From contig JAWOKN010000056.1 in assembly GCA_033854175.1 (NCBI GenBank), positions 3,736 to 67,735 on the forward strand: a DNA stretch of 64,000 nucleotides, read 5' to 3'. Below the pieces are notes generated by a model, which was not told the origin of the DNA, did no database searches, and saw only the letters and a list, made by a program, of their open reading frames with translations. Both the position numbers and the translations under genes were made by a program. This stretch comes from Bacteroidota bacterium (GTDB lineage: Bacteria > Bacteroidota > Ignavibacteria > UBA10030 > SZUA-254). Shown here piece after piece: positions 256 to 58,490 of this stretch (within the stretch, counting starts at the first letter, position 1; each line of letters starts with the position of its first letter).

Positions 256-434
256 ATGGTGTGAGAGAGGATCAAAGAAAAAGATTTCATGGACAAATAG
301 AAGCCTGGACAGGAATTTATAGCAGACATTGTAGAAGTTTTTCGCATACTGGATGTTATCCAAACATTGACAGATCATTGGCTTTTGAGAAACGGATCGA
401 TTATCTTGAATATGAAATCGGAAAGGTACCTGCT

Positions 435-1430
435 TTGACAAAGTATATTATCAGCATTCTTGTGGCTCTCTCCTCGATGAGCACTGACGAACGGGCCTAT
501 GCGAGCTGCGGAGCTGCGAGCTGCCCACTCAATTCATTCTCGCCGCTTCGTGGTGGCTGGCTGCAATTCGGTCTGGCGTATGAGTACATCAATCAGGATC
601 GCATATTTCTTGGATCGTCGGAATCGTACCCTGGAGCAATTCCGGAGGTTCATGACGAGCTCCGCACAATCAATCGGCGGACTCTTTTTCACGCACAGTA
701 CGGACTCTTCGATGGACTCGGCTTAGAAGTGCATGTCCCATTCATCAATCGTGAGCATAGCCACATTGCTCACGATGCAGAAGGCGACAAGGTGGAGTCA
801 TGGGCGTTTAGCGCAGTTGGCGATGTAATCATAAACGGGCAATATGCGCTACTCGTCCCACCAGAGGAGTTCGAGCCGTATCTCAGCGTGGTTGCCGGGA
901 TAAAGCTTCCGACCGGTGCGACTCATGAAGTGAATTCAGGTGGCGAAGAGGCAGAAGTTACAATTCAGCCCGGAACTGGGTCGACAGACGCATTCTTCGG
1001 ACTCAATTACCAACAAACTCTTGCGTCTCTTCCGATGCTCTCTGGTAAATACAGTGCACTGCCGATTATCGCGAATATAACCTTCCAGTTACCGGGACAT
1101 GGAACGCATGATTATCGATTCGGAAATTCTCTCCTTGCACATGTTGGAACCGCATACCGGTTCAGTAATTTTACCAGCATTCTCTTGCAGGTTAACGGAA
1201 AAGTTCAGGATTATGCTGATGTCGGGACGACCGGGGAACCGCGCGAGAACACCGGCGGAACATGGATTTTCCTTAGCCCGGGTCTCGGCCTCCACATATC
1301 CGATGCCTTTGTCGGCAACGCATACCTGCAAATTCCTTTATACCAGAACGTACACGGCATACAGCAAACAGCGGCATACAATTTGGCGTTCAACCTGACG
1401 TATTCGCTCAGTCTCGTTGGGGCCGATTGA
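435..1430 (+). CDS. Outer-membrane beta-barrel protein, transporter/'MetA-pathway of phenol degradation'-like family
   Basis: A hydrophobic signal-like N-terminus follows an in-frame TTG at 435 (…KYIISILVALSS…). The rest shows the alternating amphipathic pattern of beta strands with Gly/aromatic-rich turns and ends in an aromatic-containing C-terminus. Start is uncertain (ATG at 261 or 477 possible). Confidence 0.45.
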   Translation: MTKYIISILVALSSMSTDERAYASCGAASCPLNSFSPLRGGWLQFGLAYEYINQDRIFLGSSESYPGAIPEVHDELRTINRRTLFHAQYGLFDGLGLEVHVPFINREHSHIAHDAEGDKVESWAFSAVGDVIINGQYALLVPPEEFEPYLSVVAGIKLPTGATHEVNSGGEEAEVTIQPGTGSTDAFFGLNYQQTLASLPMLSGKYSALPIIANITFQLPGHGTHDYRFGNSLLAHVGTAYRFSNFTSILLQVNGKVQDYADVGTTGEPRENTGGTWIFLSPGLGLHISDAFVGNAYLQIPLYQNVHGIQQTAAYNLAFNLTYSLSLVGAD

Positions 1431-1669: not shown

Positions 1670-1948
1670 TCATCCCTCAATAATGTTCTGCACGGGAAAT
1701 ACTTTGGGTTCGACCGGAGTCACTCCTGCCTTATGAAGAACAGGTATCAAGGTCTTGCCAAATTCCTCAAGCAAGGCTTTCGATTCCCATATATCCGTCA
1801 CAACGATACTCCCGTCTTCCTGAAGGGAAGCGACATGGTACAAACGCCCTTTTGGCATTCCCTGGCCTGCGGCTTCCAATCCACGTATGGCTTTGTTGTA
1901 TTTTTCGGTATTCATGGTCGGCAGGTTAAACACGGTGATAACTGACAT
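1670..1948 (-). CDS. Small dimeric alpha+beta-barrel protein (ABM/Dabb-like)
   Basis: 92 aa. The pattern matches the antibiotic-biosynthesis-monooxygenase / stress-responsive A/B-barrel fold (…VVTDIWESKALLEEF…PVL…). Confidence 0.45.
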   Translation of the reverse strand: MSVITVFNLPTMNTEKYNKAIRGLEAAGQGMPKGRLYHVASLQEDGSIVVTDIWESKALLEEFGKTLIPVLHKAGVTPVEPKVFPVQNIIEG

Positions 1949-2351
1949 GGGTCTTTCCTTTCCTCATAGACCGCATAGAAGGCGATGCGGCACGCCGAAG
2001 CAAATGGAGTGAACCTGATTTACTGATCAGGAGTTAACTAAAAGAACGCCATGCGAACAGTCCCTATGCACGCATGTGTGCCCTTGATTGATCAAATGTA
2101 ACAATCCTTCAGAGAAAAAGCAACAGACAGGCAGTGTTGATACTGCCGGCTCGTTTTCGTCGTTTCCAGCCATTACACCTGGAAGTGGAGTTTGCCCACA
2201 AAAGAAGACAGGAAGTTAAGCCAGTGACGTTAGGAGATTTTCATATGCACTGGTGGTCTCAAACCGAGTGATGAGTGGCCGCTCGCACGTTTATAAAATA
2301 TTTTCAGATACCGACAAGATTTCGCCGGTGCACTTCCAATATCTGAAACCT

Positions 2352-2540
2352 CTACGGGAGAACATGTCGTTTCTTAAGCGTTGCAAAGAAGGATTCAGAC
2401 ATTGCGTTATCGAGGCAGTTTCCCGTGCTGCTCATATTCTGTACGATGCCATTAGTGGTCAGGATTTCTTTGACCCGAGCATCAACATATTGTTTCCCGC
2501 GATCACGGTGAAAAACAATCCTGAAGCGGTCTCTCGTCAG
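2352..2540 (-). pseudogene. IS3-family transposase fragment (C-terminal part of the integrase core; truncated and degenerate)
   Basis: The translation 'HRDRGKQYVD…GIVQNMSSTGNCLDNAMSESFFATLKKRHV' matches the IS3 OrfB hallmarks DRGSQY…GNCYDNAxxESFFxxLK. The ORF stops right after this. The upstream 100 aa of the same ORF (to 2855) are not transposase-like. Confidence 0.55.
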
Positions 2541-3344
2541 TGCAATGCCATCTGCAGTGCTTCGACGACTGCCTCGGCATGCATGTGAATTGGAAGGAAT
2601 GTGCGAACTTGCGACCGATAGGGACAGGTCCCCCCGCCAAGCTGCCGGTTTCCCGGCAGAATAATCTTTGGACAGGCTCCGACCATCATTCTGAATCCAG
2701 ATGGTGGCGGCCTGCGCCTCCTGCATGAAACGAGCCCTATCCTGTTCCGACGCCGAGAGATGGGCCGGAAGGAACTTCAGTGCGACGAACCATCTGAGCT
2801 TGAACCCTCGCGGCCTTATAGACCACTCCCATGCCCCCTTCGTCCAGCTTCTCAAGAACTTTATACCGTGACAGAGTTCGTCCGATCATGAACATCTCTT
2901 GATGAAATATTGCGATATTCGGCTATTGCGAGAGGCAGGTCGTGAATGAATACCAAATCATCCGCTCTCCGTGATCCTCCCCGGAAACGATTCCCCTAAT
3001 CCACCGAGCGGTGACATAAGTCACCCGGGAATTCCATGATCTTCCGGCAGGACCCTGACGATGTCGGAGTATCCGACCCTTCGGCCCGCCCGAGATGGAT
3101 GACACTGTTGTGCTCCCCCCACAGCCGCGTCATTCTTCCGGCGACCGGAACAAGAAATCAGACAAATGAGTATAGATCGAGTCGTAGCCGTATGATCCAA
3201 CACCCCGGTTTGCCGGCATGAAGAAAACGGGAAGATCTCTGAAGAACGGTGCACGGGGTGCGGCTCTTCACCCAAACAGGTCTCACACTTGAGAGATGTA
3301 GATCCCGATCCCCCCGGAAACCAATCGCACGGGGCAACAGAATA

Positions 3345-3360
3345 TGGTGCGCAATTTGCT
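3345..3360 (+). promoter_or_regulatory. Candidate sigma-54 (-24/-12) promoter for the multiheme cytochrome
   Basis: 'TGGTGCGCAATTTGCT' fits TGGYRYR-N4-TTGCW with GG-N10-GC spacing. It lies about 95 nt upstream of the ATG at 3454. Confidence 0.45.
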
Positions 3361-3453
3361 CGAACATATGCCGACAGAACCGCGTCCAGATCGGTCGCGG
3401 GTGCGGTCGAAATACCTCATAACATTGCGACCGGAGAGAGAAGGAGTGCGAGT

Positions 3454-5205
3454 ATGGACAAGAATACATATTTTCGCGGAGGCGCCTGTTTTTTTCTGTT
3501 ACCCATTGTTTTCATCCTTTCCCCAACCCACCTACGAGCCCAATCAGCGCTGCCATGCTACGCATGCCACAGCGGGGAGAACGACAACTGGCTGCTCGGC
3601 CGGCATGCAAACACCCAGAAGGACGTCGCAGGCGAGATCGCTGCTAACTGGCAGGGGCAGACGCCAGATTCCGTCATCCACGGCTCGGCTGCGGAGAACT
3701 GTGTAGCATGTCATTCCCCGCTTGCCGTCACGACAAACGGCGGGATGACCGAAACGCAGGTGATGGGACATTACTTCACCACGACCGGCGGTTTCTACAC
3801 TGATTCCACGCAGGCCGCGGATACGGCCAACTGGCCGCATGTCGGCTGCAACACCTGTCATGACGTTCCGTCGAACCATACGAGCCATGTGTTACCGACG
3901 CTTGCGATTTTCAATTCAACGACGGCACAATACGACTCGATGCCGACGACGGCCACGCTCTGCGGACAGTGTCACGGAACGCTGAGATTCGCGGAAACCG
4001 ACCATCGGATATTCGATGCGTGGAAACTCAGCCGGCACGGGCACAGGGGCCAATCGGACGTCGCGGGCGAGCTCGCCGGAAGCTGGGCGGGCAAAACACC
4101 CAATGACGTCATCAACGGGCCCGATGCGGAAAACTGCGTCGCCTGCCATGCTCCGACGGCGGTCGGTCAAAAATCCGGGGACACAACGGAGGTCATGGTC
4201 TTAAGCCGGTTCTTCACGACCTCGGGCGGGCAATTTACTGCAGGAACGGCCCCTTCCGACACGGCCCACTGGCCTGATGTCAGCTGCACCGCATGTCACG
4301 ACCCACATCGGCCGGACACACTTTCGTACTACAACACATCGACGAGGACGTACCAGGTCATGGCCTCATCAAACCAGTTATGCGGCCAATGCCACGGCAA
4401 CCTCAGGTTTGCCGGTACTGACCATTTAAGCTACAACGTGGAAGAAGCCATCGGTGGAGTCGGTGTGGCGGCCCAGGCGACCATGCCCGGCGCCGGGTGC
4501 ACGGATTGTCACATGCACAAGGGTGAAACGGACGGAACAAACTCACTCATGTACAAGGGGCACAGCTGGTCCATCTTCATCCACGAACCGGACAGCAGCA
4601 CAACCGCCTCCTGCACATCATGTCATGCGGGAATGAACGCCGATTCCTCCAAAACGGTCATCGCCGGCTGGAAGGCCGAATTTGCCTCGACGGACTCACT
4701 CGCCCAGTTACGGGTTGCCTCAGCAGACTCGGCGCTGCAGGGAATAACCGATTCCGTCAGGCAGGCATATCTTGCGGAAGCAAAGAGCAACCTGAGTCTT
4801 GCGGAATCGGACGAAAGCGGCGGATTCCACAACCACAAATACAGTATGGCGCTCCTGAACGACGCCATTGCGAAATCGGCACTCATCACCGGAGTAACGA
4901 TGCCGCAGGCGAATCTCCCGCTGCGGTTCGCGTTACATCAGAACTACCCGAATCCCTTCAATCCATCGACCATCATCCGGTATGAGATCCCCCTTGAAAG
5001 CAGAGTGGCCCTGAAGGTCTACAATGTTCTGGGACAGACCGTGGCAATACTGCGGGAGAACGTAGAATCAGCGGGGTACAAAATTGTAGAATGGACTGCG
5101 GCAGGCATGCCAAGCGGCATATACTTCTGTCAGCTCCAGGCAACGAGCACCTCGCATCCCGTCAAGGCCTACAGTCAGGTCATGAAGATGCTTCTTATTA
5201 GATAA
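3454..5205 (+). CDS. Secreted nonaheme cytochrome c with a C-terminal T9SS sorting domain
   Basis: An AAGGAG ribosome-binding site precedes the ATG at 3454, followed by a signal peptide (FFLLPIVFILSPTHLRA). There are nine CxxCH motifs (CYACH, CVACH, CNTCH, CGQCH, CVACH, CTACH, CGQCH, CTDCH, CTSCH). An internal ~150-aa tandem duplication is present (DVAGEIAANWQGQTPDSVIHGSAAENCVACH… vs DVAGELAGSWAGKTPNDVINGPDAENCVACH…). The C-terminus 'NYPNPFNPSTIIRYEIP…KVYNVLGQTVA' is a type-A T9SS CTD. Confidence 0.85.
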   Translation: MDKNTYFRGGACFFLLPIVFILSPTHLRAQSALPCYACHSGENDNWLLGRHANTQKDVAGEIAANWQGQTPDSVIHGSAAENCVACHSPLAVTTNGGMTETQVMGHYFTTTGGFYTDSTQAADTANWPHVGCNTCHDVPSNHTSHVLPTLAIFNSTTAQYDSMPTTATLCGQCHGTLRFAETDHRIFDAWKLSRHGHRGQSDVAGELAGSWAGKTPNDVINGPDAENCVACHAPTAVGQKSGDTTEVMVLSRFFTTSGGQFTAGTAPSDTAHWPDVSCTACHDPHRPDTLSYYNTSTRTYQVMASSNQLCGQCHGNLRFAGTDHLSYNVEEAIGGVGVAAQATMPGAGCTDCHMHKGETDGTNSLMYKGHSWSIFIHEPDSSTTASCTSCHAGMNADSSKTVIAGWKAEFASTDSLAQLRVASADSALQGITDSVRQAYLAEAKSNLSLAESDESGGFHNHKYSMALLNDAIAKSALITGVTMPQANLPLRFALHQNYPNPFNPSTIIRYEIPLESRVALKVYNVLGQTVAILRENVESAGYKIVEWTAAGMPSGIYFCQLQATSTSHPVKAYSQVMKMLLIR

Positions 5206-5240
5206 GACGGACACGGGAAAAAAGTCACATTGATATCGAA

Positions 5241-5268
5241 GCAGGCCGGTGCAACAACACCGGCCTGC
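5241..5268. terminator. GC-rich hairpin between convergent genes; possible bidirectional terminator
   Basis: GCAGGCCGGTG-caacaa-CACCGGCCTGC is a perfect 11-bp stem. It sits between the cytochrome stop (5205) and the stop of the minus-strand small gene (5288). The T/A runs are weak. Confidence 0.35.
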
Positions 5269-5287
5269 CTGTCATTCAGGAGACAAT

Positions 5288-5488
5288 TCAGAGCCGGTCA
5301 GGCTTCACCGGGCAGATCGACCGGTAGAAGCAGCCGGTGCATTCAAGCGCCTGGCGGGGAACCACGGTAGTACACCGGGGGCAACGTTCGACGAAAGGAT
5401 TCGTGACCTCGAGATGGCACTGCGGGCAGCGGCGGATTTCCGTGGCAAGTTTCTCCCGGAGGGCCATTTCCGATGCCTTCAGATCCAT
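5288..5488 (-). CDS. Small zinc-ribbon-like Cys-rich protein (CPQC…CPRC…CTGC)
   Basis: 66 aa counted from the internal Met (MDLKASEM…). It contains two CxxC pairs plus further Cys, and begins just downstream of the feoB stop. Function unknown. Confidence 0.35.
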   Translation of the reverse strand: MDLKASEMALREKLATEIRRCPQCHLEVTNPFVERCPRCTTVVPRQALECTGCFYRSICPVKPDRL

Positions 5489-5493
5489 ACCCG

Positions 5494-7386
5494 TTACATC
5501 ACAAAATGAGACACAACGCCGCCGACAAAAAAGGCCACGACCCAGGTACCGATCCAGATCACCATCCCCTCCCTCCAGCCCCTCTCTTTGAGCATCACCA
5601 TCAGTGAAGCGATGCACGGGACAAAGAGGGTAATGACGATAAGCGAAACGGCAATCTGCATCGGGTTGAGGGACATATGGTACAGACCGGCCGCGCCGAA
5701 ATCTCGGCGGACGACGCCCATAATAAATGCGACAGCGGCCTCCGGGGGCAGCTGGAGCCAGTGGACGACCAGGGGGGTAAGTTCGTGCTCGAGAAGATCC
5801 AGCAAACCGGTAAGCTGTGCGATACCGACCGCGAGTGCGCCCACAAAAAACCAGCCCGAGGCCTCCTTCATGAAATAATATGTCCGGACGGCGGTTTTCC
5901 TGAAGACATTTTCCATACGGGGCAATCTCATCGGCGGGAGATCCAGAAGAAGCGGGGCTGACGAGCCCGGCAGGACCCGGTCGAGCATCGTTCCGATAAG
6001 GACCAGAACGGCAAGGATCACCAGGACATAGACAGCGATCGGGCCCGGGCCCGCACCCGCAAGGAGCGCGGCGATGACGGCCATCTGGGCGGAGCAGGGG
6101 ATGACAAACTGAAGAATTGCGGTGGCAATCGTCTTCTCGCGTTCAGAGCCGAGGAGGCGTGTAGTAATCGTTGCGGAGGTCACGCAGCCGAAGCCGAGAA
6201 TCAGCGGAATGACGGCCCTTCCGTTCAGGCCGAGGTAGGTCAGAATGCGGTCCACCATCGTCGCCAGCCGCGGAAGGTACCCGCTATCCTCCATCAGAGA
6301 AAGAACGATATAGAACGAAATCACGAGCGGAAGCAGAAGAAAAAGAAGATACGTTGTGGTCATGGTCACAACGCCGTAAGGACCGACAAGGAGTGTATAC
6401 CACCATGATGAGGGAGAAATCAGGGTGGCGGTGATCGTGCGGATCCACGGTTCCCAGAGATTGTTACCGATCCGCTGCTCGGTAAAATTCACAACCAGCT
6501 GGGAAACAAACTTTCCGATAAAGAGATAGGCGACATACAATGCGGCGACAAGGATAGGGATCCCCGTGGAGGGCTTCAGGGCCCAGCGGCCGAGCCTGTC
6601 GGAAAACCGTCTTTTCGGGGAAGTATCCTGCATGACCTGGTTCACGAGATAATTCACCCGGTTGCGGCGGCTGATATAAATCTCATCGCGGAGCGTGCCG
6701 GGATTGACGCCGTGGCGCCGGGCGACAAACTGGTCCCCCTCGAGGACCAGCAGGGCCTCGGATTGTGAGCCGACCATGGAAAGGGTCTCATGGAGGTGGC
6801 CGTGGAGTTCCTCGCGCTGGGTCCCCTCGCGGGCGCCCAGGATGGCCTGATCGAGTTTTTCCAGCGTGACGCCGTTCACGGCGGTAACGGGAATGACACT
6901 GACGCCCAAAAAATTCGAAAGCTTCGGAATGTCGATACTGATATGAAAATCCCTCACCTCGTCCATAAAATTCAGCAGCACCGTAATCTTCTTCCCCATA
7001 TCGATCAGCTGCTGGGTCAGAAACAGGTCCCGTTCGAGGTGTGTCGCATCGACAACATTCAGAACAATATCCGCGTCGAGGATGATATCGCGGGCGGCTT
7101 TCTCCTCATCATTAAACGACGAGACCCCATAGATGCCGGGTGTATCGAAGACATCATAATCGCGGTAGGAACCGCAGACAAGTTCGACGGTAGTCCCCGG
7201 ATAATTCGAGACATCGACATTCATACCGGAAAGGGTATTAAAAATGATCGATTTCCCGACATTGGGATTGCCGGCAAGGACAATTTCCACGCGTCCGGTC
7301 TGTTTGCGGGGGGATCTCAGGCCGGGATGCTGGTGTCTATCCGAATGTTCCAGCGGGGGGCGGGATAAAGGATCATCTGGTGTCAT
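5494..7386 (-). CDS. feoB: Ferrous iron transport protein B
   Basis: Carries the N-terminal G-protein motifs (GNPNVGKS, DTPG, NFMD) and a long polytopic membrane domain. A GTG at 7290 would give the canonical 'MEIVLAGNPNVGKS' N-terminus, so the ATG at 7386 may be an over-extension. Confidence 0.9.
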   Translation of the reverse strand: MTPDDPLSRPPLEHSDRHQHPGLRSPRKQTGRVEIVLAGNPNVGKSIIFNTLSGMNVDVSNYPGTTVELVCGSYRDYDVFDTPGIYGVSSFNDEEKAARDIILDADIVLNVVDATHLERDLFLTQQLIDMGKKITVLLNFMDEVRDFHISIDIPKLSNFLGVSVIPVTAVNGVTLEKLDQAILGAREGTQREELHGHLHETLSMVGSQSEALLVLEGDQFVARRHGVNPGTLRDEIYISRRNRVNYLVNQVMQDTSPKRRFSDRLGRWALKPSTGIPILVAALYVAYLFIGKFVSQLVVNFTEQRIGNNLWEPWIRTITATLISPSSWWYTLLVGPYGVVTMTTTYLLFLLLPLVISFYIVLSLMEDSGYLPRLATMVDRILTYLGLNGRAVIPLILGFGCVTSATITTRLLGSEREKTIATAILQFVIPCSAQMAVIAALLAGAGPGPIAVYVLVILAVLVLIGTMLDRVLPGSSAPLLLDLPPMRLPRMENVFRKTAVRTYYFMKEASGWFFVGALAVGIAQLTGLLDLLEHELTPLVVHWLQLPPEAAVAFIMGVVRRDFGAAGLYHMSLNPMQIAVSLIVITLFVPCIASLMVMLKERGWREGMVIWIGTWVVAFFVGGVVSHFVM

Positions 7387-7678
7387 GGGGAACTTCGTCG
7401 ATGACCGTCACGAGAATACTCCGTGCAAGTGTGTGGCCGATAGCGATCTGCTGTCGGTTTTTCTGGAGAACGATGGTTCCGCCCGGGAGGCGTTCCAGGC
7501 ATTTGACGCGCTGCCCTTCATGGATCCCCAGCCGGACGAACTGGGGGTAATAATCGCCGCCGGGGACCGAATGAATCTTCAACAATTGACCGACCTTGGT
7601 TTCGCTCATAGAGACGGGTTTCTTGCGGCTCTTCTTGTCAGTCATGATATCATATCGATTAAATTCAAACATACTCAC
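7373..7678 (-). CDS. feoA: FeoA-family small protein
   Basis: SH3-like FeoA pattern (VGQLLKIHSV…GIHEGQRVKCLERLPGGTIVLQ…IAIG). The likely true start is the internal Met at 7609 (MSETKVGQ…). Confidence 0.75.
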   Translation of the reverse strand: MSMFEFNRYDIMTDKKSRKKPVSMSETKVGQLLKIHSVPGGDYYPQFVRLGIHEGQRVKCLERLPGGTIVLQKNRQQIAIGHTLARSILVTVIDEVPHDTR

Positions 7679-7703
7679 CTATTATCGGCAATTATTGTGC
7701 CAC

Positions 7704-9135: not shown

Positions 9136-10125
9136 TCATTTTTTCGTCTCATGTTGTTCCGGAACGGGATCTGACAGAAGCAGTTCCCTGACCGTAGGGC
9201 AGGAGAGAACCTCCGATCGGAGTTTGGCCAGAACCTCCGAGTTATACCAGATCTCCCTGAAATTATAATTATTCTCGCGGAGTTCGCCGCACGGGGTGCC
9301 GAGTGAGGCGCAGGGCTGGACCGAGCCTGTAGGCGAGATGAAGATAAAGCTCCTTCCGGCGAGGCACCAGTGGGTCCACTCGACGCGGACCTTATGATTC
9401 TCCTGTTCCCCGTTTCCCTCACCCGGTGCCGCAACATCATGGAGGCCGTATTTGATGCACTGGGGAGAAAAATACATCCCCTTCGGGCTCAGGCGTTTAA
9501 TCTGGGCGATCTTCGATATGAACTGGCCGATAAACTGGTCGGTATCGGCGTCCTGATCCTTCTCCGGAAGGAGGGCGGCGTCCCACGCCAGGTGGCAGTA
9601 GAGACCGTTTGCGGACTTCTGGAGTGCAAAGTCATGTTCAAAGGCCAGCTGGCGGGTATCGGGCTTATGGATACTGCTCCCGAGGTGGATTTCGTAGCCC
9701 GCCTTCTTGAGCCGCCGGATGCTGTTTTCCAGCGCCTGAAACTGCGTCGATTGCTTGAAACGGGTATCCATATCCTCGGTGATCGCGCCATCCAGGAGAA
9801 GGCGGAAAACCTTGGGGCCGAAGATGACATACTTCTCGATCATTTCGTCGGTCAGCTCCTGGGGTGCGACCTCGATAATCATCTTCAGGCCGAGGGCGAA
9901 CCCGTATTCGACAATCTGAAAAAGATCGGGGCGTTCGGCGACCTTTCTGCCGGTGAGGACGATAATCGGTTTTGCGATGCGGGCGATGCTGTCGATGATC
10001 AGGAGGCATTCATGGGTAGTAAGGACATCGGGCTCTCCGGGTGTTTTTTTCCTTGAAAGCTGCCAGACGATCATCCTGGGGAAAAAATCCTCTTCTTCGC
10101 GGTGGCTGTGTGCTGGACCCTGCAT
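9136..10125 (-). CDS. Radical-SAM/SPASM-fold protein lacking the CxxxCxxC cluster motif and GGE motif (pseudo-radical-SAM)
   Basis: Aligns along its length with PqqE/AhbD/NirJ-type radical SAM enzymes, but the cluster motif is replaced by 'QLSRKKTPGE', GGEP by GRKV, and TNG by EVA. The C-terminal SPASM-like Cys cluster is retained (CLAGRSFIFISPTGSVQPCASLGTPCGEL…C). No compensating frame contains the motifs. Confidence 0.6.
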   Translation of the reverse strand: MQGPAHSHREEEDFFPRMIVWQLSRKKTPGEPDVLTTHECLLIIDSIARIAKPIIVLTGRKVAERPDLFQIVEYGFALGLKMIIEVAPQELTDEMIEKYVIFGPKVFRLLLDGAITEDMDTRFKQSTQFQALENSIRRLKKAGYEIHLGSSIHKPDTRQLAFEHDFALQKSANGLYCHLAWDAALLPEKDQDADTDQFIGQFISKIAQIKRLSPKGMYFSPQCIKYGLHDVAAPGEGNGEQENHKVRVEWTHWCLAGRSFIFISPTGSVQPCASLGTPCGELRENNYNFREIWYNSEVLAKLRSEVLSCPTVRELLLSDPVPEQHETKK

Positions 10126-10533: not shown

Positions 10534-10852
10534 TATTCTTCACCGTCTCGATAATTTCGACAACAAGGGGGAAGTAGCGGTCGAGGGCGCACTCCAGTTT
10601 ACTCCTCTTCCCGCAGAAAAGGTCGGGGGTCTGGAAATCGCAGTTTGCGCAGACAGTTTTCCTCAGGGCCGTGACATAGTCCCGGATATCGGGGGAATCG
10701 ACGGCAGTGACCGACTGGACAATCTCGGGTAAAAAGTGTTTCAGGGGACATTCCTCACCGGCGGGGAGGCGGCAAAGGCCCGTGCCGTCGCCGTCCACGC
10801 ACTTCCTGCAAATCCGGTTTTGGATCACCGGCCACAACTGATCGAGTTTCAT
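10511..10852 (-). CDS. Cys-rich small protein A (paralog of 10147..10533)
   Basis: 113 aa from the internal Met (MKLDQLWPVIQNRICRKCVDGDGTGLCRL…). Same 8-Cys architecture as protein B. The ORF is open to 10951. Confidence 0.5.
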   Translation of the reverse strand: MKLDQLWPVIQNRICRKCVDGDGTGLCRLPAGEECPLKHFLPEIVQSVTAVDSPDIRDYVTALRKTVCANCDFQTPDLFCGKRSKLECALDRYFPLVVEIIETVKNNGKKIAV

Positions 10853-26375: not shown

Positions 26376-27713
26376 ATGAACAACGCACTGACCATTGACC
26401 GTCTGCAGTTCGCCTTCACGGTCTCCTTCCACTATCTCTTCCCGCAGCTGACGATGGGGCTGGCGCTTTTCATCGTGATCCTGAAGTGGCTCGGTTTCAG
26501 GAACAACGACGAAACCTACGACAAGGCGGCAAGGTTCTGGGGGAAGATCTTCGCATTGAATTTCTTCGCCGGTGTCATCACCGGCATACCGATGGAATTC
26601 CAGTTCGGGACCAACTGGGCGCGGTTCTCGAAAATCACCGGCGGCGTGATCGGGCAGACGCTGGCGATGGAGGGGGTATTCTCCTTTTTCCTCGAATCGA
26701 GTTTCCTCGGGCTCTTCCTTTTCGGCGAGAAGAGGCTCGGACCAAGGAAGCACTTCCTCTCGGCGCTTCTCGTCTTCATCGGCTCGTGGTTATCGGGGTA
26801 CATGATCGTGCAGACAGACGCCTGGATGCAGCACCCCGTGGGGTACGAACTCACGGCTGACGGCACCATTCAGCTCACCGACTGGTTTGCCTTGCTCTTC
26901 AACCCGTGGGGATTGTGGCAGTACGCGCACACAATGGCCGGGGCGGTCGTGACTGCCTCGTTCGTGATGATGGCGGTGGGGGCTTATTACCTCTTATCGG
27001 AGAGGGAGAGCGGGCATGCCAGAATCTACCTGCGACACGGCGTCGTGGTGGGGATCGTGGCGTCGGTCATCCTCATTTTTCCGACGGGGGACCAGCAGGG
27101 GAAAAACGTGGCCTACAACCAGCCCGCGACTCTTGCCGCGATGGAATGCGTGTTCAAGTCGAAGGAGGGGGCGGAGCTGATCCTCATCGGGCAGCCCGAC
27201 ATGGAAAAGGAGCGGATGGACAACCCGCTGCACATACCGAAGATGCTCAGCTTCCTCACCTACAACAGGTGGAACGCACGCGTGGTGGGGCTGGACGAGA
27301 TACCGGCGGAGTTACGGCCCGACAACATACCGCTTCTCTATTACACCTATCACATCATGGTGGGGCTGGGGACAATCTTCGTGGCCATACTGGTAACGAG
27401 CATCCTTCTCTTATGGAAGAAAAAACTCTTCACCTCGCGATGGATGCAATGGATACTCCTCTTGAGCTTCCCGTTCCCCTACATTGCCAACACGGCGGGC
27501 TGGATGACGGCTGAACTGGGGCGGCAGCCGTGGCTGGTCTACAATCTCCTCAGGACGGCGGAAGGGACATCGCCGACCGTGGCGGCGGGGAACGCGCTCT
27601 TCACGCTCCTCGGGTTTCTGGGGATGTACCTTGTCGTGGGGGTCGTCTTCATCATGCTGGTCGTCAACATCATCAACGGGGGACCGGAAAAAGTGTCCCG
27701 GGCCGGATACTGA
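26376..27713 (+). CDS. cydA: Cytochrome bd ubiquinol oxidase subunit I
   Basis: N-terminus 'LTIDRLQFAFTVSFHYLFPQLTMGLA' and Q-loop features. Confidence 0.9.
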   Translation: MNNALTIDRLQFAFTVSFHYLFPQLTMGLALFIVILKWLGFRNNDETYDKAARFWGKIFALNFFAGVITGIPMEFQFGTNWARFSKITGGVIGQTLAMEGVFSFFLESSFLGLFLFGEKRLGPRKHFLSALLVFIGSWLSGYMIVQTDAWMQHPVGYELTADGTIQLTDWFALLFNPWGLWQYAHTMAGAVVTASFVMMAVGAYYLLSERESGHARIYLRHGVVVGIVASVILIFPTGDQQGKNVAYNQPATLAAMECVFKSKEGAELILIGQPDMEKERMDNPLHIPKMLSFLTYNRWNARVVGLDEIPAELRPDNIPLLYYTYHIMVGLGTIFVAILVTSILLLWKKKLFTSRWMQWILLLSFPFPYIANTAGWMTAELGRQPWLVYNLLRTAEGTSPTVAAGNALFTLLGFLGMYLVVGVVFIMLVVNIINGGPEKVSRAGY

Positions 27714-27732
27714 TCTTTCAAAGGAACTAGCC

Positions 27733-28767
27733 ATGGAAGCACTCTGGTTCTGGATCATCGCCCTGATGATCGTCGTCTACGTGATCCTGGACGGGTTCGA
27801 TCTCGGGATAGGGGTCATATACTTCCTGATAACCAAAAACGACAGCGAGCGGTCGCTGTTATTGAAGACCATCGCGCACGTATGGGACGGAAACGAAGTC
27901 TGGCTTCTGGCCGGGGGCGGCGTATTATTCCTGGCATTCCCGGCGGTCTATGCGGCATCGTTCAGCGGATTCTACCTCCCCCTGATGATCGTCCTATGGC
28001 TTCTGATGCTGCGCGGCGGAGGAATCGAACTCCGGCATTACGTCCATCATCCGCTCTGGAGAAAATTCTGGGACAGAACATTTTCCGTCTCGAGCCTTCT
28101 TCTGGCGATATTTCTGGGCGCCGCACTGGGTAATGTCGTACGGGGAGTCCCGCTGACACGTGAGGGATACTTCTTCGAGCCGCTCTGGACGACCTTCACG
28201 GTTGTGCCGGAGGCGGGGATACTCGACTGGTTCACGGTCATGATGGGACTGGTGGCGCTGGCGACGCTGACACTGCACGGGGCCGTCTATGTCAGCATGA
28301 AAACGACGGGAGAAATCCAGGCACGGGCGCGGACAATCGGACAGTGGGTCTGGTGGATTGCGTTATTCATGTCCGTCGACATGTTCATCGCGACCTGGAC
28401 CATTCACCCGGATCTCTGGGCGAACTACGCCGAGCATGCGGGGGGATTCATCCTCCCGGTGGGCGGGGTGGCGGGGATACTCGCGACCTATATCGCCATC
28501 GTGCGGAAAAAGGACACGGCTGCATTTTGTTTCTCGACGCTCTACATCATTTCCATGCTGGCGGCGACGGCATTTGCGGTCTATCCGAACCTGTTATTGG
28601 CATCCACGCAGAAGGAATACTCGCTCACGATCTACAACTCGGCCGCCCGGAGTTACGGACTGGGGGCAGCGCTCTACTGGTGGATACCGGGAATTCTGCT
28701 CGCCGCGCTCTACTTCACATATCTTTTCAGGACATTCCGGGGGAAGGTACAACCCTCGGAGGAATAA
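27733..28767 (+). CDS. cydB: Cytochrome bd ubiquinol oxidase subunit II
   Basis: An AAGGAA ribosome-binding site precedes the ATG at 27733 (MEALWFWIIALMIVVYVILDGFDLGIG…). Confidence 0.9.
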   Translation: MEALWFWIIALMIVVYVILDGFDLGIGVIYFLITKNDSERSLLLKTIAHVWDGNEVWLLAGGGVLFLAFPAVYAASFSGFYLPLMIVLWLLMLRGGGIELRHYVHHPLWRKFWDRTFSVSSLLLAIFLGAALGNVVRGVPLTREGYFFEPLWTTFTVVPEAGILDWFTVMMGLVALATLTLHGAVYVSMKTTGEIQARARTIGQWVWWIALFMSVDMFIATWTIHPDLWANYAEHAGGFILPVGGVAGILATYIAIVRKKDTAAFCFSTLYIISMLAATAFAVYPNLLLASTQKEYSLTIYNSAARSYGLGAALYWWIPGILLAALYFTYLFRTFRGKVQPSEE

Positions 28768-37997: not shown

Positions 37998-39344
37998 ATG
38001 AACAACGATATATCCATACTCATTGTCGACGATGAAAAGGTCGTCCGCGAATCCCTCTCGAAGTGGTTCAAGGAAGACGACTTCATCGTGGGCGCATCAG
38101 AAAACGCGGCTGAAGCCCTGAAACAGCTCCAGGTGCGGAAATGGGACATCATTCTCCTCGACATCAAAATGCCGGGGATGGACGGGATGGAGTTACAGCA
38201 GCGAATCCGGGAGATCGACCCCGGAGCGACGATCATCTTCATCACGGCGCACGCCTCGGTCGACACGGCGGTCCAGGCCCTGAAGGCGGGGGCGTTCGAT
38301 TACATCGCGAAGCCGATCGACCCCGACTACCTGTCGCATCTGATCCAGAACGCCATCAAGCAGCGGATCCTGACGGGAGAAAACATCCGTCTGAAGGAGC
38401 AGATCACCGAATTCGCGAAAGTCGATGAGATCATCGGCGACTCCCCGCAGATGAAGAAGGTCTTCGAACTGATCGAAACGGTGGCAAAGACCGACACGAC
38501 GGTCATGATCCGGGGCGAAAGCGGAACGGGGAAGGAGCTCATCGCGCGGGCGATTCACGGCAACAGCGAACGGCGGTATTTTCCCATCGTCGCCATCAAC
38601 TGCGGGGCATTGCCGGAGGGAATACTGGAAAGCGAACTCTTCGGTCATGAGCGGGGTGCGTTTACCGGGGCGCAGTACAGGAGAAAGGGAAAAATCGAGC
38701 TGGCCGACGGCGGCACATTATTTCTTGACGAGGTCGGCAACATCGGGATGAAGACCCAGATGGACCTCCTCCGTGTAATCGAGACAAAGCAATTTTCGCG
38801 TGTCGGGGGAAACGAGCTGATCAAGGTGGACTTCAGGACCATCTGCGCGACAAACAGGGATCTCGAGAAGGCCGTTCAGGAGGGCACCTTCCGTGAAGAC
38901 CTCTATTACCGTCTCAACGTCTTCTCCGTCCTCGTCCCCCCCTTGCGCGAGCGGAAGTCGGACATCCCCCTGCTGGCAAATTACTTTTTGAAAAAATACT
39001 CGCGATCGATGGGGAAGCCGATCGTGACCATCTCCTCGGACGCGATGGATCTGATGGTCAAATACAACTGGCCCGGGAACATCCGCGAGCTGGAAAACGC
39101 GATAGAGCGGGCGATGGTGGTCGGAAAGCCCCCCTGCATCAAGGCGGTGGATCTGCCGATACAGTTCTCCGATCTCATTGCGGCACCTTCGCTCGGATCT
39201 CTGGCATCGATGGAAAAAAGCCACATCGCCGAGATCCTCCGGATGAACAACTGGAACATCTCCCGGTCCGCGGAAGTCCTGCAGATCGACCGGGTCACTC
39301 TCTACAACAAGATCGAAAAATATGGCCTGAAAAAGCCGCAGTGA
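37998..39344 (+). CDS. Sigma-54-dependent response regulator (NtrC family)
   Basis: Receiver domain (LIVDDE…D54-like 'ILLDIKMPGMDG') plus an AAA+ sigma-54 activator (GESGTGKE, 'ESELFGHERGAFTGA') and a C-terminal HTH. Confidence 0.9.
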   Translation: MNNDISILIVDDEKVVRESLSKWFKEDDFIVGASENAAEALKQLQVRKWDIILLDIKMPGMDGMELQQRIREIDPGATIIFITAHASVDTAVQALKAGAFDYIAKPIDPDYLSHLIQNAIKQRILTGENIRLKEQITEFAKVDEIIGDSPQMKKVFELIETVAKTDTTVMIRGESGTGKELIARAIHGNSERRYFPIVAINCGALPEGILESELFGHERGAFTGAQYRRKGKIELADGGTLFLDEVGNIGMKTQMDLLRVIETKQFSRVGGNELIKVDFRTICATNRDLEKAVQEGTFREDLYYRLNVFSVLVPPLRERKSDIPLLANYFLKKYSRSMGKPIVTISSDAMDLMVKYNWPGNIRELENAIERAMVVGKPPCIKAVDLPIQFSDLIAAPSLGSLASMEKSHIAEILRMNNWNISRSAEVLQIDRVTLYNKIEKYGLKKPQ

Positions 39345-56381: not shown

Positions 56382-58490
56382 TTATTTCACGAGCAGCATT
56401 GTTTCTGTCTTCGTATACTCTCCCGCCTGCAAGCGGTAGAAATAAGGTCCACTCGGCAACTCCGCGGCACTGAATGTTCTCGCATAGACCCCGGCCGCCA
56501 ACCTCTCCCTGTCGATCATCGTCCCCACCAGCTGACCCAGCAGATTAAACACCTTCAACGTAACGACCGATTGTTTCGGAAGGCCAAACGCAATTGTGGT
56601 TGATGGGTTAAAGGGATTGGGATAATTTCGCGACAGATAAAATCGCGCTGGCAGGGGATCGTGGGCGGGTTCAATCCCCGTCATCATCTCCGACAATGGA
56701 CGTCTCCACACCCCGCTCGTCACCGTTCCTGCGAAAAGGTTTCCATTATTCACAGCAAAAGCATAAACCGTCGTATTCGGCATTCCCAGATTGACCTGGG
56801 TCCAGTACACCCCGTCGTTCGTCGAAAGAAAAATCCCGCTGTCACTTCCCGCAAAGATATTCAACACGCCCCCTCCCTGAATCGTCAAGAGCGACCTTAT
56901 GTTGAAATTTGTCAGGCCTGAATCGGCAGGAACCCAGCTCCCACCGTTATTCGTTGAACAAAAAACCCCCCCGCCCAGTGTGCCGGCAAAAAGGCGTGTT
57001 TCGGTACCGGCAAGAGCGCGCACGTCCAGATTCGACAGATTTGAACTGACATCGGTCCAGCTCGTTCCATTATTTGTGGAGAGGAAAACGCCACCGCCGG
57101 ATGTCCCTGTAAACAAATTTGTCCCCCCGCCCCCGTCGGGGACAACGGCAAACGAGCGTATTATGGAATTCGTCAGGCCAGAATCGGCCGCACTCCAGCT
57201 CGTTCCATTATTCGTCGAGAGAAACACGCCGCCTCCGGAGCTACCCGCAAAGACAGTGCCACCGCTCACAGCGAGGGAACTGAAGAGGGGATAGATCAGG
57301 CCCGAATCAACAGGGATCCATTCCGTCCCATTATTGGTGGAGAGAAAAACCCCGCTGCGCGCTGCGGCAAAGAGATTCGTACCGCTCGACGCAAGGGCGG
57401 AGATATACACGTCGTACAGTCCGGAACTCGCCGGGGACCAGTTCAACCCGCCGTCGGTGGTGCGAAATACGCCGTTACCGGATGTTCCCGCGAAAACATT
57501 TATTCCATCGGAGGAAAGAGCCCTCACCGAGGTATTCGTCAGACCTGAGCTGGCAGAGCTCCAGCTTGTCCCATCATCCGTGGAAAGATAGACCCCACCG
57601 CCATACGTGCCGGCAAAAAGATTCGTTCCGTTGACGGCAATCGAATAGACCGAACCGTTGATCAAACCCGAATCCACCGACACCCAGTTTTTCCCGCTGT
57701 TTGTTGACCGGAAGACGCCAGTACCGCCGCCTGCGTACAACGCCGTCCCTTTTGAAGCAAGAGTTCTAACATACGGATTCCATAAATCTGAATCGGCGCG
57801 GGTCCAATTTTGACCGTTATTGGTGGAAACACATACACCGCCGCCCCAGGTACCGGCAAAAAGATATGAACCGCTGACGGTCAGGGTACCCACTTGGGAA
57901 TTTGTCAGTCCGGAGTTAACAGCAGTCCAGGCGGATCCGTTGTTCGTAGAACGAAAAACCCCATTGTTCATCGTCCCGGCAAATATGTTCACCCCGTTGA
58001 CACCGAGGGCAAGAATGGATGAATCGGTCAATCCTCCGCTCGCAGACGTCCAGGTAAGCCCATTATTGGTCGACCGGAAGACTCCGCTCCCGGATGTTCC
58101 CGCGAAGATACTCGTTCCATTCACAGCCAGGGACGATACAAACATGTTCCAGAGGCCGGAATTCCGTCCGGTCCATGTCGCCCCGTTATCCGTGGAAAGA
58201 AAAACACCGCCTCCGCGGGTACCCGCAAAGATATTCGTGCCGCTCAGGGCGAATGAATAGACATACATACTGCTCAGACCAGAGGGAGTCCACGTCGAGC
58301 CGGTATTTGTGGAATGAAAAATCCCGTTATCAGTCCCCGCGAAAAGATCTGCACCATTAACGGCTATGGCATACACATCGCCGCCAAAGGGACCGTTCGT
58401 CTGCACCCATTGAGCTTCAAGCTGATTCACCACAAAAGAGAATAAACACAGAAATGATACCATTCGCAGCATAAACCCTCCTTGCACCAT
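56382..58490 (-). CDS. BNR/Asp-box repeat protein (Ycf48/sortilin-like beta-propeller repeats) with a C-terminal T9SS sorting domain
   Basis: Signal peptide, then ≥14 tandem ~40-aa repeats 'GTNLFAGT.GGGVF.STNNG.SW…SGL.N'. 'S-T-N-N-G-T-S-W' is an Asp-box variant. The C-terminus 'RNYPNPFNPSTTIAFGLP…KVFNLLGQLV' is a T9SS CTD. Confidence 0.75.
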   Translation of the reverse strand: MVQGGFMLRMVSFLCLFSFVVNQLEAQWVQTNGPFGGDVYAIAVNGADLFAGTDNGIFHSTNTGSTWTPSGLSSMYVYSFALSGTNIFAGTRGGGVFLSTDNGATWTGRNSGLWNMFVSSLAVNGTSIFAGTSGSGVFRSTNNGLTWTSASGGLTDSSILALGVNGVNIFAGTMNNGVFRSTNNGSAWTAVNSGLTNSQVGTLTVSGSYLFAGTWGGGVCVSTNNGQNWTRADSDLWNPYVRTLASKGTALYAGGGTGVFRSTNSGKNWVSVDSGLINGSVYSIAVNGTNLFAGTYGGGVYLSTDDGTSWSSASSGLTNTSVRALSSDGINVFAGTSGNGVFRTTDGGLNWSPASSGLYDVYISALASSGTNLFAAARSGVFLSTNNGTEWIPVDSGLIYPLFSSLAVSGGTVFAGSSGGGVFLSTNNGTSWSAADSGLTNSIIRSFAVVPDGGGGTNLFTGTSGGGVFLSTNNGTSWTDVSSNLSNLDVRALAGTETRLFAGTLGGGVFCSTNNGGSWVPADSGLTNFNIRSLLTIQGGGVLNIFAGSDSGIFLSTNDGVYWTQVNLGMPNTTVYAFAVNNGNLFAGTVTSGVWRRPLSEMMTGIEPAHDPLPARFYLSRNYPNPFNPSTTIAFGLPKQSVVTLKVFNLLGQLVGTMIDRERLAAGVYARTFSAAELPSGPYFYRLQAGEYTKTETMLLVK

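Follow-up and report, generated by a model that had tools for sequence, protein, structure and literature searches.

The stretch of DNA that we analyzed (64,000 nucleotides; hereafter, the window) carries a gene for a 583-aa nonaheme c-type cytochrome that ends in a C-terminal domain (CTD) of the type 9 secretion system (T9SS). The gene is real, and a protein identical to its product is recorded as NCBI entry P0001 (75,701-nt contig). The gene stands alone at its locus, in an uncultured, Ignavibacteriales-like member of the FCB group; Table 1 collects the features of the locus. Alignments of the homologs begin at the same Met as the ATG chosen here, and the TTG at 3289, the mechanical start of the open reading frame, was rejected in favor of this ATG, which has a Shine-Dalgarno sequence ahead of it. 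The preliminary description had let the gene span begin at 3345, where only a putative promoter lies. The predicted N-terminus is Sec-like, with a basic n-region (MDKNTYFR), a hydrophobic core and a cleavage region LRAQS/A; the AQS is conserved in an alignment of 34 homologs, and residues 3-22 are helical in the AlphaFold model. Both the n/h/c regions and the conserved AQS agree with the cleavable signal peptide proposed earlier.

Table 1. Features of the cytochrome locus and other elements of the window discussed in the text (positions are those of the window)
Feature	Position	Strand	Remarks
Sigma-54-like -24/-12 element TGGTGCGCAATTTGCT	3345..3360	+	109 nt upstream of the ATG
Shine-Dalgarno GAAGGAG	3440..3446	+	7 nt 5' of the ATG; read from the sequence
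Cytochrome CDS	3454..5205	+	Start ATG 3454; stop included
Sec-type signal peptide, aa 1-31	3454..3546	+	Predicted cleavage after AQS; n/h/c regions read from the sequence
Heme 1 CYACH, aa 35-39	3556..3570	+	Invariant W46 and H51 behind it; aligns with OcwA heme 1
Triheme unit 1, aa 44-184	3583..4005	+	Hemes 2-4 (CVACH, CNTCH, CGQCH); self-alignment and conservation
Triheme unit 2, aa 188-324	4015..4425	+	Hemes 5-7 (CVACH, CTACH, CGQCH); self-alignment
C-terminal module, aa 325-480	4426..4893	+	Hemes 8-9 (CTDCH-M, CTSCH); predicted three-helix bundle
Type-A T9SS CTD, aa 498-583	4945..5202	+	NYPNPFNP near its start, KMLLIR at the C-terminus
Perfect 11-bp inverted repeat GCAGGCCGGTG / CACCGGCCTGC	5241..5268	.	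6-nt loop; separates the cytochrome gene from convergent feoAB
feoA and feoB	5494..7678		Convergent, directly downstream of the cytochrome gene
Upstream ORF	261..1430		Considered as porin partner; unassigned
Cytochrome bd oxidase	26376..28767		
NtrC-type activator	37998..39344		About 34 kb from the gene
Perfect sigma-54 consensus site	45256		
Second CTD cargo	56382..58490		

Exactly nine CxxCH motifs were counted in the open reading frame, the number reported before, and the 583-aa protein contains no CxxCK, CxxxCH or CxxxxCH variant. Along the protein the hemes are laid out as 1+3+3+2. The leading heme can be aligned, if weakly, to heme 1 in cytochrome c554. It is followed by two triheme units, which end in an invariant T-D-H184 and an invariant T-D-H324, respectively, and by a C-terminal module that aligns to OcwA, NrfA and ONR. 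The predicted three-helix bundle of this module (helices 396-427, 434-451 and 461-479) carries an invariant DESGGxHNH motif.

The two triheme units are tandem copies of each other: they share 50% identity over 143 columns (score 376, versus 38 ± 6.7 for shuffled sequences) and are 65% identical in DNA. This self-alignment supports the tandem unit of about 150 aa that had been noted, but each unit holds three CxxCH motifs and not four. The duplication was also taken to be recent, which the homologs contradict. The repeat is present in 167 of 167 nine-heme homologs, and one unit is less similar to the other inside a protein (52% identical) than to its equivalent across species (62%). Judged from these comparisons, the triheme duplication is ancient, older than the split of these phyla. 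The unit occurs in two, three or four copies, with other lineages reaching 12 or 15 hemes through three or four of them, and this variation fits what is expected of an extendable heme wire. Similarly, the ‘nanowire’ c7 polymers of Geobacter (e.g., GSU1996; TIGR04257) reach 9, 12 or 15 hemes with tandem three-heme units. However, the Geobacter unit has about 75 aa, whereas the one described here has about 138 and is flanked by c554- and NrfA-like ends; matches to Cytochrome_C7 and nanowire_3heme were weak, with TIGR04257 scoring 15.2 against a cut-off of 40.

The nearest solved relative of the cytochrome is OcwA (TherJR_2595 from Thermincola potens; PDB 6I5B), followed by NrfA and the octaheme nitrite reductases. 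A profile of the family reached OcwA in the PDB, and the similarity to 6I5B is significant; a single-sequence phmmer search against the PDB returned nothing. The two proteins have in common nine CxxCH motifs, an N-terminal part resembling c554, a C-terminal part that resembles NrfA and contains a three-helix bundle, and a predicted extracytoplasmic or surface location. OcwA has an undecaheme relative, OmhA (6QVM). Their identity is only about 20%, and the match lies mainly in heme 1 and in the last 215 residues, a region that also aligns to NrfA. The profile matches of the N-terminal module to c554 were weak (E 0.05). The AlphaFold model, which is heme-free and of moderate confidence (pLDDT 79.6), has a TM-score to OcwA of 0.34-0.39. 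Moreover, the tandem triheme duplication with its variable copy number is obvious here and was not seen for OcwA in the parts of the OcwA reports available to us. OcwA is located in the wall of a Gram-positive and lacks a T9SS tag, whereas the present host is a diderm and its protein carries a CTD.

OcwA reduces iron oxides at the cell surface, and of its nine hemes, numbers 2 and 5 are pentacoordinate under His-His motifs (PMC6703420; PMC9250108). In our alignment D323-H324 coincides with an OcwA ‘HH’, which is probably H380/H381, the distal pair of heme 5 (PMC6703420). Its repeat twin is D183-H184; in both, the second His is 100% conserved and the first position is Asp, so that the distal pair is Asp-His here and His-His in OcwA. 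Seven further conserved His residues are present for the seven remaining hemes. Homology to OcwA makes it probable that the distal sites of hemes 2 and 5, the first heme in each triheme unit, are open or weakly occupied under these invariant Asp-His pairs, an assignment of ligands read from the alignment.

Putatively open hemes of this kind would also suit a reductase of soluble substrates. The protein could then be an enzyme of the NrfA, ONR or MccA kind, acting on nitrite, hydroxylamine, sulfite or another sulfur oxyanion, with a CTD that only brings it to the outer membrane or beyond, or is not used. The cytochrome c552 model PF02335 matches with 49.8 bits against a cut-off of 24.1, several homologs carry the NrfA name in NCBI and JGI, and a rhodanese-domain gene adjoins the homolog in five loci. 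In addition, OcwA slowly reduces nitrite and hydroxylamine in vitro, although its kcat for nitrite, about 1 per minute, is far below that of a true NrfA (PMC6703420). NrfA identity itself was rejected: the NrfA equivalog model NF008339 fell far short of its cut-off (12.4 versus 595 bits), the NrfB models failed as well, the CxxCK heme is absent and there are nine hemes rather than five or eight. Neither nrfH nor nrfBCD partners are adjacent to the gene, and, unlike NrfA or ONR (TvNiR), the protein has a secretion tag, which is kept in 151 of the 167 homologs and is hard to square with a periplasmic enzyme. We regard a soluble-substrate reductase as distinctly unlikely.

A match of PF22113 to the heme-rich stretches raised the possibility that the protein belongs with MtrC, a membership that we rejected on architecture and fold. 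The role proposed here is also that of the decaheme MtrC and OmcA of Shewanella, multiheme terminal reductases exposed beyond the outer membrane. However, the present protein has nine hemes instead of ten and no lipobox, the beta-barrel domains that alternate with two pentaheme domains in MtrC are not apparent in its predicted secondary structure, and MtrC is absent from its structural matches. MtrC and OmcA are exported by type II secretion (T2SS), while the predicted route here is the T9SS and no MtrAB-like partner is nearby.

The evidence for this route lies in the C-terminal domain. TIGR04183, which had been set beforehand as the model that ought to recognize the domain if it were a T9SS signal, does so at residues 498-567 with 33.7 bits (cut-off 23), and PF18962 matches the same residues with 29.2 bits (cut-off 27). 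The type-A CTD assigned in the preliminary description is thus recognized above the curated cut-offs of both models. In the predicted structure, the CTD forms a beta-sandwich that superposes on solved T9SS CTDs, one of which was captured in a T9SS complex. The motif, with NYPNPFNP at its start and a K, three hydrophobic residues and a K/R at its end, is kept in 151 of the 167 unique nine-heme homologs, which span several FCB phyla. The organism probably uses the T9SS, since the window encodes another CTD cargo as well.

It is also conceivable that the CTD has become a relic without function, or that its beta-sandwich misleads, in which case the protein would be an electron carrier of the usual periplasmic kind. 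The Pfam score is barely over its cut-off, no component of the T9SS machinery (SprA/Sov, PorV, PorU or GldK/L/M/N) was found among the scanned ORFs of the 64-kb window, and homologs from other phyla have no CTD. However, TIGR04183 is clearly over its cut-off, the signature start and C-terminus persist across several FCB phyla, and the homologs that have no CTD carry a different tether rather than none. Taken together, we consider a relic CTD most improbable.

This last point emerges from the wider family. The cytochrome has thousands of homologs, one of which, P0119, comes from a Melioribacteraceae isolate. Those from the FCB group carry the T9SS tag, whereas those from outside it have no CTD and instead have an N-terminal lipobox with a Pro/Thr-rich linker, which suggests that a single core has been combined with lineage-specific devices for envelope targeting or tethering. 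The replacement of the CTD by lipobox and linker argues that envelope tethering has been under selection in this family, although in diderms a lipobox alone does not prove surface exposure.

The known cargo of the T9SS comprises hydrolases, adhesins and motility proteins. The type-A cargo gingipains, mirolase, NucA and ChiA have the same arrangement of a Sec signal peptide and a C-terminal beta-sandwich, but in our case the cargo would be a covalently heme-loaded redox protein, and there was no such cargo in the literature searched. Nor did that search find a paper linking the T9SS to multiheme cytochromes; such a link is likewise not mentioned in the genome papers on Melioribacter and Caldithrix or in a bioanode metagenome paper. 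The route was called unusual in the earlier description, which holds for the literature searched but not for genomes, where thousands of homologs exist. Beyond the present family, CTD-bearing multiheme cytochromes form at least 50 other clusters.

We clustered the genomic context of 80 loci in search of an operon and found no universal partner. The neighborhood is not conserved, so context yields no consistent functional signal. In five relatives the gene sits within a multi-cytochrome cluster encoding 9-, 12- and 6-heme proteins, and relatives' cytochrome loci are also flanked by CTD proteins. Only a minority of the 80 loci show the context of several cytochromes with a rhodanese, and the same holds for a context of a two-component system with an RND pump. 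The upstream ORF was considered as a porin partner but left unassigned, as neither Pfam nor NCBIfam matches it and an IS3 remnant lies between it and the gene. Cytochrome-maturation genes, a porin-cytochrome conduit and any other multiheme cytochrome were all absent from the 64-kb window, so that no electron supply to a surface protein is apparent there.

The closest neighbors, feoA and feoB, raise the possibility that the protein reduces metals at the surface for the sake of metal homeostasis and not of respiration. It could act in iron acquisition, producing Fe(II) for FeoAB, or in the detoxification of redox metals under metal-sensing two-component control and beside an RND efflux pump. In about 13 relatives, indeed, the gene is found between a two-component system and a CusA/CzcA-like RND pump (TIGR00914, 692.8 bits against a cut-off of 701), with the kinase and regulator best matching the heavy-metal families TIGR01386 and TIGR01387. 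However, these two-component and RND matches fall under the curated cut-offs. The adjacency to feoAB occurs only in the window, in convergent orientation, and is absent in the closest relative, while most loci have neither context. A nine-heme wire would also be elaborate for assimilatory reduction. A role in metal homeostasis seems unlikely to us.

Expression of the gene had been attributed to a sigma-54 promoter. The candidate element, TGGTGCGCAATTTGCT, matches 9 of 11 positions of TGGCAC-N5-TTGCW (two mismatches) with the correct GG-N10-GC spacing. Across the window, two-mismatch sites are at chance level (19 observed versus 22 expected); within the local 300 nt, the P value from shuffling was 0.019. 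Sites with at least 9 of 11 positions and the right spacing within 300 nt upstream were found in 5 of 11 sequences, namely the window and four of its ten closest relatives, but the site is absent or weak at most of 80 more distant loci. The similar sites in close relatives favor the proposed promoter, whereas its chance-level frequency in the window and its absence from most distant loci speak against it. The window also encodes an NtrC-type activator and contains a perfect sigma-54 consensus site elsewhere, and no rpoN was seen in its 64 kb. A scan for sigma-70 promoters and terminators gave nothing over background near the gene, and an Rfam search of positions 1900-5600 found no regulatory RNA. 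The inverted repeat GCAGGCCGGTG / CACCGGCCTGC is possibly a bidirectional terminator; it has no T-run directly after it, which is why the consensus terminator scan missed it.

With these alternatives weighed, the reading that we favor, and to which we give slightly better than an even chance, is that this nonaheme cytochrome of the OcwA/NrfA superfamily leaves the periplasm through the T9SS and passes electrons to extracellular acceptors. The analysis shows the gene, its motifs, the CTD, the repeat, the homology and the exchange of targeting devices between lineages, whereas the export, the heme ligation, the origin of the electrons that would cross the outer membrane and the acceptor used in the living cell are inferred. 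The precursor would be exported by Sec and its signal peptide removed, as the N-terminal sequence suggests. Following general cytochrome c maturation, the nine hemes would be attached in the periplasm, where the protein would fold. By analogy with other cargo, the T9SS would then recognize the beta-sandwich CTD, the folded holo-protein would cross the outer membrane and the CTD would be cleaved, after which the protein may be anchored to the surface or released. Outside, the nine hemes would form a chain that starts with the leading heme, runs through both triheme repeats and finishes in an NrfA-like end of two hemes with a three-helix bundle, and substrate could bind at the putatively open distal sites of hemes 2 and 5. 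The most likely job of the protein is to hand electrons, respiratory or reductive, on to acceptors outside the cell, for example minerals of Fe(III) or Mn(IV), humics, metals or electrodes. In line with this, OcwA reduces acceptors of the extracellular type in vitro (PMC6703420), and Ignavibacteria are known to reduce Fe(III), to colonize anodes and to have porin-cytochrome genes (PMC7399161).

Electrons could also flow the other way, with the protein acting as a surface oxidase that brings them into the cell from an outside donor, be it Fe(II), a reduced humic, a cathode or a syntrophic partner. As a rule, multiheme wires can work in both directions. OcwA both reduces and oxidizes hydroxylamine (PMC6703420). 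With a cytochrome bd oxidase encoded in the window, a high-potential acceptor is probably within the organism's reach. However, nothing specific favors this direction: no iron-oxidation genes of the Cyc2 or MtoA type were found in the window or in related loci, and what can be seen of the metabolism (PFOR, OFOR and phosphotransacetylase/acetate-kinase-family genes) is that of a fermenter or organotroph. We consider such reverse flow very unlikely.

Mechanisms of extracellular electron transfer are known mainly from Shewanella and Geobacter, with a little from Gram-positives, and Shewanella exports its outer cytochromes through the type II system. Sediments, aquifers, bioreactors and anode biofilms are rich in Ignavibacteria and other FCB lineages, some of which reduce Fe(III). 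A conserved T9SS tag on an OcwA-like cytochrome and on many other multiheme proteins suggests a concrete and testable route by which the cytochromes of these lineages could reach the outside. It is tempting to speculate, with the odds evenly balanced in our judgment, that the T9SS exports multiheme cytochromes generally, and so far unrecognized, throughout the FCB superphylum, including Ignavibacteria, Bacteroidota, Calditrichota, Chlorobiota, Marinimicrobia, Zixibacteria, Gemmatimonadota and others. In this scenario the OcwA-like family would be the commonest cargo, next to the 50 or more additional clusters (defined at 50% identity, with 4-18 hemes). If so, folded proteins with nine or more covalent hemes would pass the SprA/Sov translocon and become fixed at the surface, the cargo range of the T9SS would widen to large cofactor-loaded redox proteins, and the extracellular electron-transfer apparatus of the FCB group would be assembled unlike the T2SS-dependent Mtr/Omc systems. 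Moreover, the triheme unit would be an evolvable module for wire extension, from 9 to 12 to 15 hemes, and the CTD, or the lipobox with its linker in other phyla, could mark surface-exposed cytochromes for prediction. Finally, the NrfA names given to several homologs by NCBI and JGI, such as ‘ammonia-forming cytochrome c nitrite reductase subunit c552’, belong to a wider set of ‘nitrite reductase c552’ labels on many such proteins, which can inflate predictions of DNRA in metagenome studies.

The window encodes a nonaheme c-type cytochrome of 583 aa (3454-5205, plus strand), best described as an OcwA-like cytochrome adapted to export by type IX secretion (T9SS). Its CxxCH motifs number exactly nine, as previously counted (aa 35, 83, 132, 170, 228, 278, 310, 349 and 387), and no CxxCK or spaced heme-motif variant occurs in the protein. 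The N-terminus reads as a signal peptide of Sec type, in which MDKNTYFR leads into a hydrophobic core and LRAQS stands just before A, and the AQS preceding the predicted cleavage site is kept across the family. At the other end, aa 498-567 are recognized as a type-A T9SS C-terminal domain (CTD) by both curated models, TIGR04183 (33.7 bits, cut-off 23) and PF18962 (29.2 bits, cut-off 27). Thus, the preliminary description was largely right in what it observed, and its main interpretation, which it had made dependent on recognition by TIGR04183, survives that test; the amendments are three hemes per repeat unit, an ancient duplication, a coding sequence starting at 3454 and a promoter that is no more than suggestive. 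The mechanical ORF spans 3289-5205, with no in-frame start between TTG 3289 and ATG 3454. This ATG lies 7 nt 3' of GAAGGAG (3440-3446), every homologue alignment starts from its Met, and the gene begins here and not at 3345, as first marked.

Among 5.8 billion proteins searched for homologues, more than 3,000 matched. The best 120 are mostly 560-600 aa long with 50-70% identity, and most carry PF18962; they are named 'T9SS type A sorting domain-containing protein' or 'ammonia-forming cytochrome c nitrite reductase subunit c552', and their host labels include Bacteroidota, Ignavibacteriaceae, Chlorobi, Calditrichaeota, Caldithrix and Melioribacteraceae. A single-sequence search of the PDB with the window cytochrome gave no match; the family profile placed OcwA of Thermincola potens first (6I5B, E 4.9e-16), followed by NrfA (1.8e-6) and then octaheme nitrite reductase. 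Identity with NrfA was rejected (equivalog model 12.4 against a cut-off of 595), the CxxCK heme of NrfA being absent here, and identity with MtrC was likewise rejected. OcwA is a nonaheme terminal reductase at the cell surface whose N-terminal half resembles c554 and whose C-terminal half, which includes three helices, resembles NrfA; it acts on iron oxides and, slowly, on nitrite and hydroxylamine (PMC6703420; PMC9250108). We infer, with good motivation, that the window protein would serve in electron transfer at the surface.

The reported tandem duplication is borne out by self-alignment of aa 44-184 with 188-324 (50% identity over 143 columns; score 376 against 38 +/- 6.7 in shuffled sequence). 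Each unit holds three CxxCH (CVACH, C[NT][TA]CH, CGQCH), not four as described, with an invariant T-D-H at its end, and the heme layout is 1+3+3+2. The duplication had also been called recent, but it is old: the units share 65% DNA identity, units inside one protein average 52% identity against 62% for the equivalent unit across species, and both are present in all 167 unique nine-heme homologues. The triheme unit is still evolutionarily mobile, with three copies (12 CxxCH) in the CTD-less homologues P0065 and P0116 and four (15 CxxCH) in P0002 and P0004, also CTD-less; two units of P0002 are 99% identical.

By virtue of this duplication, hemes 2 and 5 are copies of each other. In cytochrome c554, heme 2 is the pentacoordinate one. 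The N-terminal profile matches this protein weakly (E 0.05), across hemes 1-2 and a 'DHR' after a CxxCHG, and c554 has a pentacoordinate heme within this N-terminal module (PMC9250108). Hemes 2 and 5 of OcwA are described as pentacoordinate, each beneath a His-His pair, in environments that its authors consider near-identical (PMC6703420); hemes alike in environment there are duplication copies here. Opposite the OcwA 'HH' after heme 7, probably the H380/H381 that lies above heme 5, the profile alignment places the family-invariant D323-H324, whose counterpart in the other unit is D183-H184. Thus, the window family has Asp-His at the position aligned with His-His in OcwA. Besides H184 and H324, seven non-motif His are conserved, together with invariant M344 and M354. 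H51, H195, H370 and H459 are invariant and H285 is 94% conserved; in a 34-sequence alignment H142 is invariant and H461 nearly so, each falling below 93% in the 167-sequence set. Since these seven could make the other seven hemes six-coordinate, and given the OcwA alignment, hemes 2 and 5 stand a roughly even chance of having open distal sites, the structure model being one built without hemes.

Across 185,579 species genomes, 127 loci encode a relative. In metagenome-assembled genomes (MAGs) with FCB-phylum labels (Bacteroidota, Ignavibacteria, Calditrichota, Chlorobiota, Kryptoniota, Marinimicrobia, Zixibacteria and Gemmatimonadota), the match extends to residue 583 and therefore takes in the CTD, which also occurs in a few MAGs with other labels (e.g. 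Chloroflexota L002, Actinomycetota L051 and a number of 'Deferribacteres'). In MAGs of Anaerolineae/Chloroflexota, Nitrospirota, Spirochaetota, Hydrogenedentota, Phycisphaerae and Acidobacteriota, the match ends at about residue 478. Most of these CTD-less relatives have an N-terminal lipobox (e.g. LGGC, LGAC, LVGC) and usually continue into a linker rich in Pro, Thr and Ser, some 10-60 residues long; a few have a plain signal peptide or membrane anchor and no lipobox. Some CTD-less nine-heme homologues (P0124, P0126 and the one at L079, 7896-9488) end in a different conserved tail of ~50 aa (...SWTG.GTLQ...GPW.D...FYRLRP) that may be a further lineage-specific sorting or anchoring domain. The same redox core has thus been fitted with different envelope-targeting or tethering devices in different phyla, and this swapping is our strongest argument that the extracytoplasmic, probably surface, location of the family would be functional.

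HMMER, run in full against 1.84 billion cluster representatives, returned 226 at E <= 1e-30. Among the best 147 of these, four or more CxxCH occur in 69, of which 50 also end in a T9SS CTD motif. Because these 50 range from 4 to 18 hemes and show several distinct architectures, T9SS-tagged multiheme cytochromes form a broad class beyond this window. Members of other multiheme families (P0185, P0173, P0157, P0178 and P0168; 670-1060 aa, 9-18 hemes, N-terminal Ig-like or beta-rich regions) have in common with the window protein only the C-terminal heme pair, a helix motif (D-G-S-H-G-[IV]-H-N) and the CTD, and look like a sister set. No paper linking T9SS to multiheme cytochromes or extracellular electron transfer was found in open-access full text, and the link goes unmentioned in the Melioribacter and Caldithrix genome papers and in a metagenome study of bioanodes. 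The OcwA-like T9SS-tagged class is large, mis-annotated and apparently undiscussed.

The window gene is a stand-alone transcription unit, as an inverted repeat and convergent feoBA follow it and ~600 nt of non-coding DNA separate it from an IS3 remnant upstream. This remnant hints at earlier rearrangement or transfer here, consistent with the non-conserved neighbours. The closest relative (70% identity) is also solitary, adjoining another CTD protein. At about 13 loci, the homologue has upstream of it a divergently oriented two-component system of OmpR type, best matching heavy-metal sensor families under their cut-offs, and a CusA/CzcA-like RND pump downstream. At five loci (L042, L043, L048, L052 and L056, from MAGs with a Deferribacteres or Calditrichota label and, in one case, from an unclassified bacterium), it lies inside a multi-cytochrome cluster (e.g. 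L043, 5002-11882) ordered as TPR protein, 9-heme cytochrome, double-rhodanese protein, homologue, unassigned ~400-420-aa protein and 12-heme cytochrome, with a 6-heme cytochrome following in L052 and L056. The ~400-420-aa protein could be the outer-membrane porin of a porin-cytochrome conduit. Because neighbourhoods vary and FeoAB adjoins the homologue in the window only, context fixes neither the substrate nor the route of electrons across the outer membrane.

The proposed sigma-54 promoter, TGGTGCGCAATTTGCT (3345-3360), departs from TGGCAC-N5-TTGCW at two positions. Such two-mismatch sites number 19 across the window against 22 expected, and the GG-N10-GC element is entirely absent upstream in 43 of 80 homologous loci. 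In its favour, when 300 nt upstream of the window gene and its ten closest relatives (59-70% identity) were searched for at least 9 of 11 positions with correct spacing, five of the eleven had a site: the window (-109), L081 (TGGCACCATAATTGCC, -71), L083 (TGGCATGGAAATTGCG, -102), L084 (TGGCATTCTTCTTGCT, -187) and L089 (-297), each with a per-sequence shuffle P <= 0.02. The window further holds a perfect consensus site (45256) and an activator gene. Sigma-54 control is not family-wide, and for the cytochrome in this sub-clade it is plausible, at roughly even odds. Similar sites precede the PFOR, NrfCD-like and feoA genes, and sigma-54 may be widely used in the organism.

Features of the window around and beyond the cytochrome gene
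Feature	Position	Strand	Remarks
ORF, 389 aa	261-1430	+	hydrophobic N-terminal segment; beta-rich, Gly/aromatic-rich; no Pfam/NCBIfam match
Truncated IS3-family transposase	2352-2855	-	matches C-terminal 50 residues of integrase core only
Perfect inverted repeat, 11 bp	5241-5268		between cytochrome gene and convergent feoB, feoA
Small ORF over feoB 3' end	5288-5617	-	paired CxxC (CPQCH...CPRC...C..C), zinc-ribbon-like; no family match
SPASM-domain protein	9136-10125	-	best matches AhbD, NirJ, far under cut-offs
Two overlapping paralogous small Cys-rich ORFs	10147-10533, 10511-10951		after SPASM gene; no family match
NrfC-like 4Fe-4S protein	33306-34124	+	within module 32620-36087
NrfD-like membrane protein	34121-35323	+	within module 32620-36087
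NtrC-type sigma-54 activator	37998-39344		accompanied by histidine kinase
Sigma-54 perfect consensus, TGGCACAGATGTTGCA	45256-45271	+	57 nt before ferredoxin-like gene at 45328
Further sigma-54-like sites	40028-40043 (+), 32560-32575 (+), 36302-36317 (+), 7687-7702 (-)		close upstream of gene starts
BNR/sortilin-repeat protein, 702 aa	56382-58490	-	second T9SS cargo; Por_Secre_tail at end, 33 bits (cut-off 27)

RsgA encoded in the window shares 67-68% identity with proteins whose names come from Ignavibacteriales MAGs. The second CTD protein indicates that T9SS would serve several proteins in this organism. The window also encodes PFOR, 2-oxoacid:ferredoxin oxidoreductase and cytochrome bd oxidase; no second multiheme cytochrome, T9SS machinery or heme-maturation genes were found within its 64 kb. 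The NrfCD-like pair has glycine-cleavage-H-like (lipoyl-carrier-like) domain proteins on either side, then the histidine kinase and sigma-54 activator, and belongs to an unusual quinol-oxidoreductase module on the plus strand. Feeding of periplasmic cytochromes has been proposed for the Melioribacter roseus NrfCD cluster, and by analogy this module could do the same. AhbD and NirJ are heme b and heme d1 radical-SAM enzymes, respectively. As its N-terminus apparently lacks the CxxxCxxC cluster motif, the SPASM-domain protein may be a pseudo-radical-SAM protein. The CPQCH of the ORF over feoB is a coincidental CxxCH, the encoded protein showing no evident signal peptide, and the features of the 389-aa ORF are suggestive of an outer-membrane barrel.
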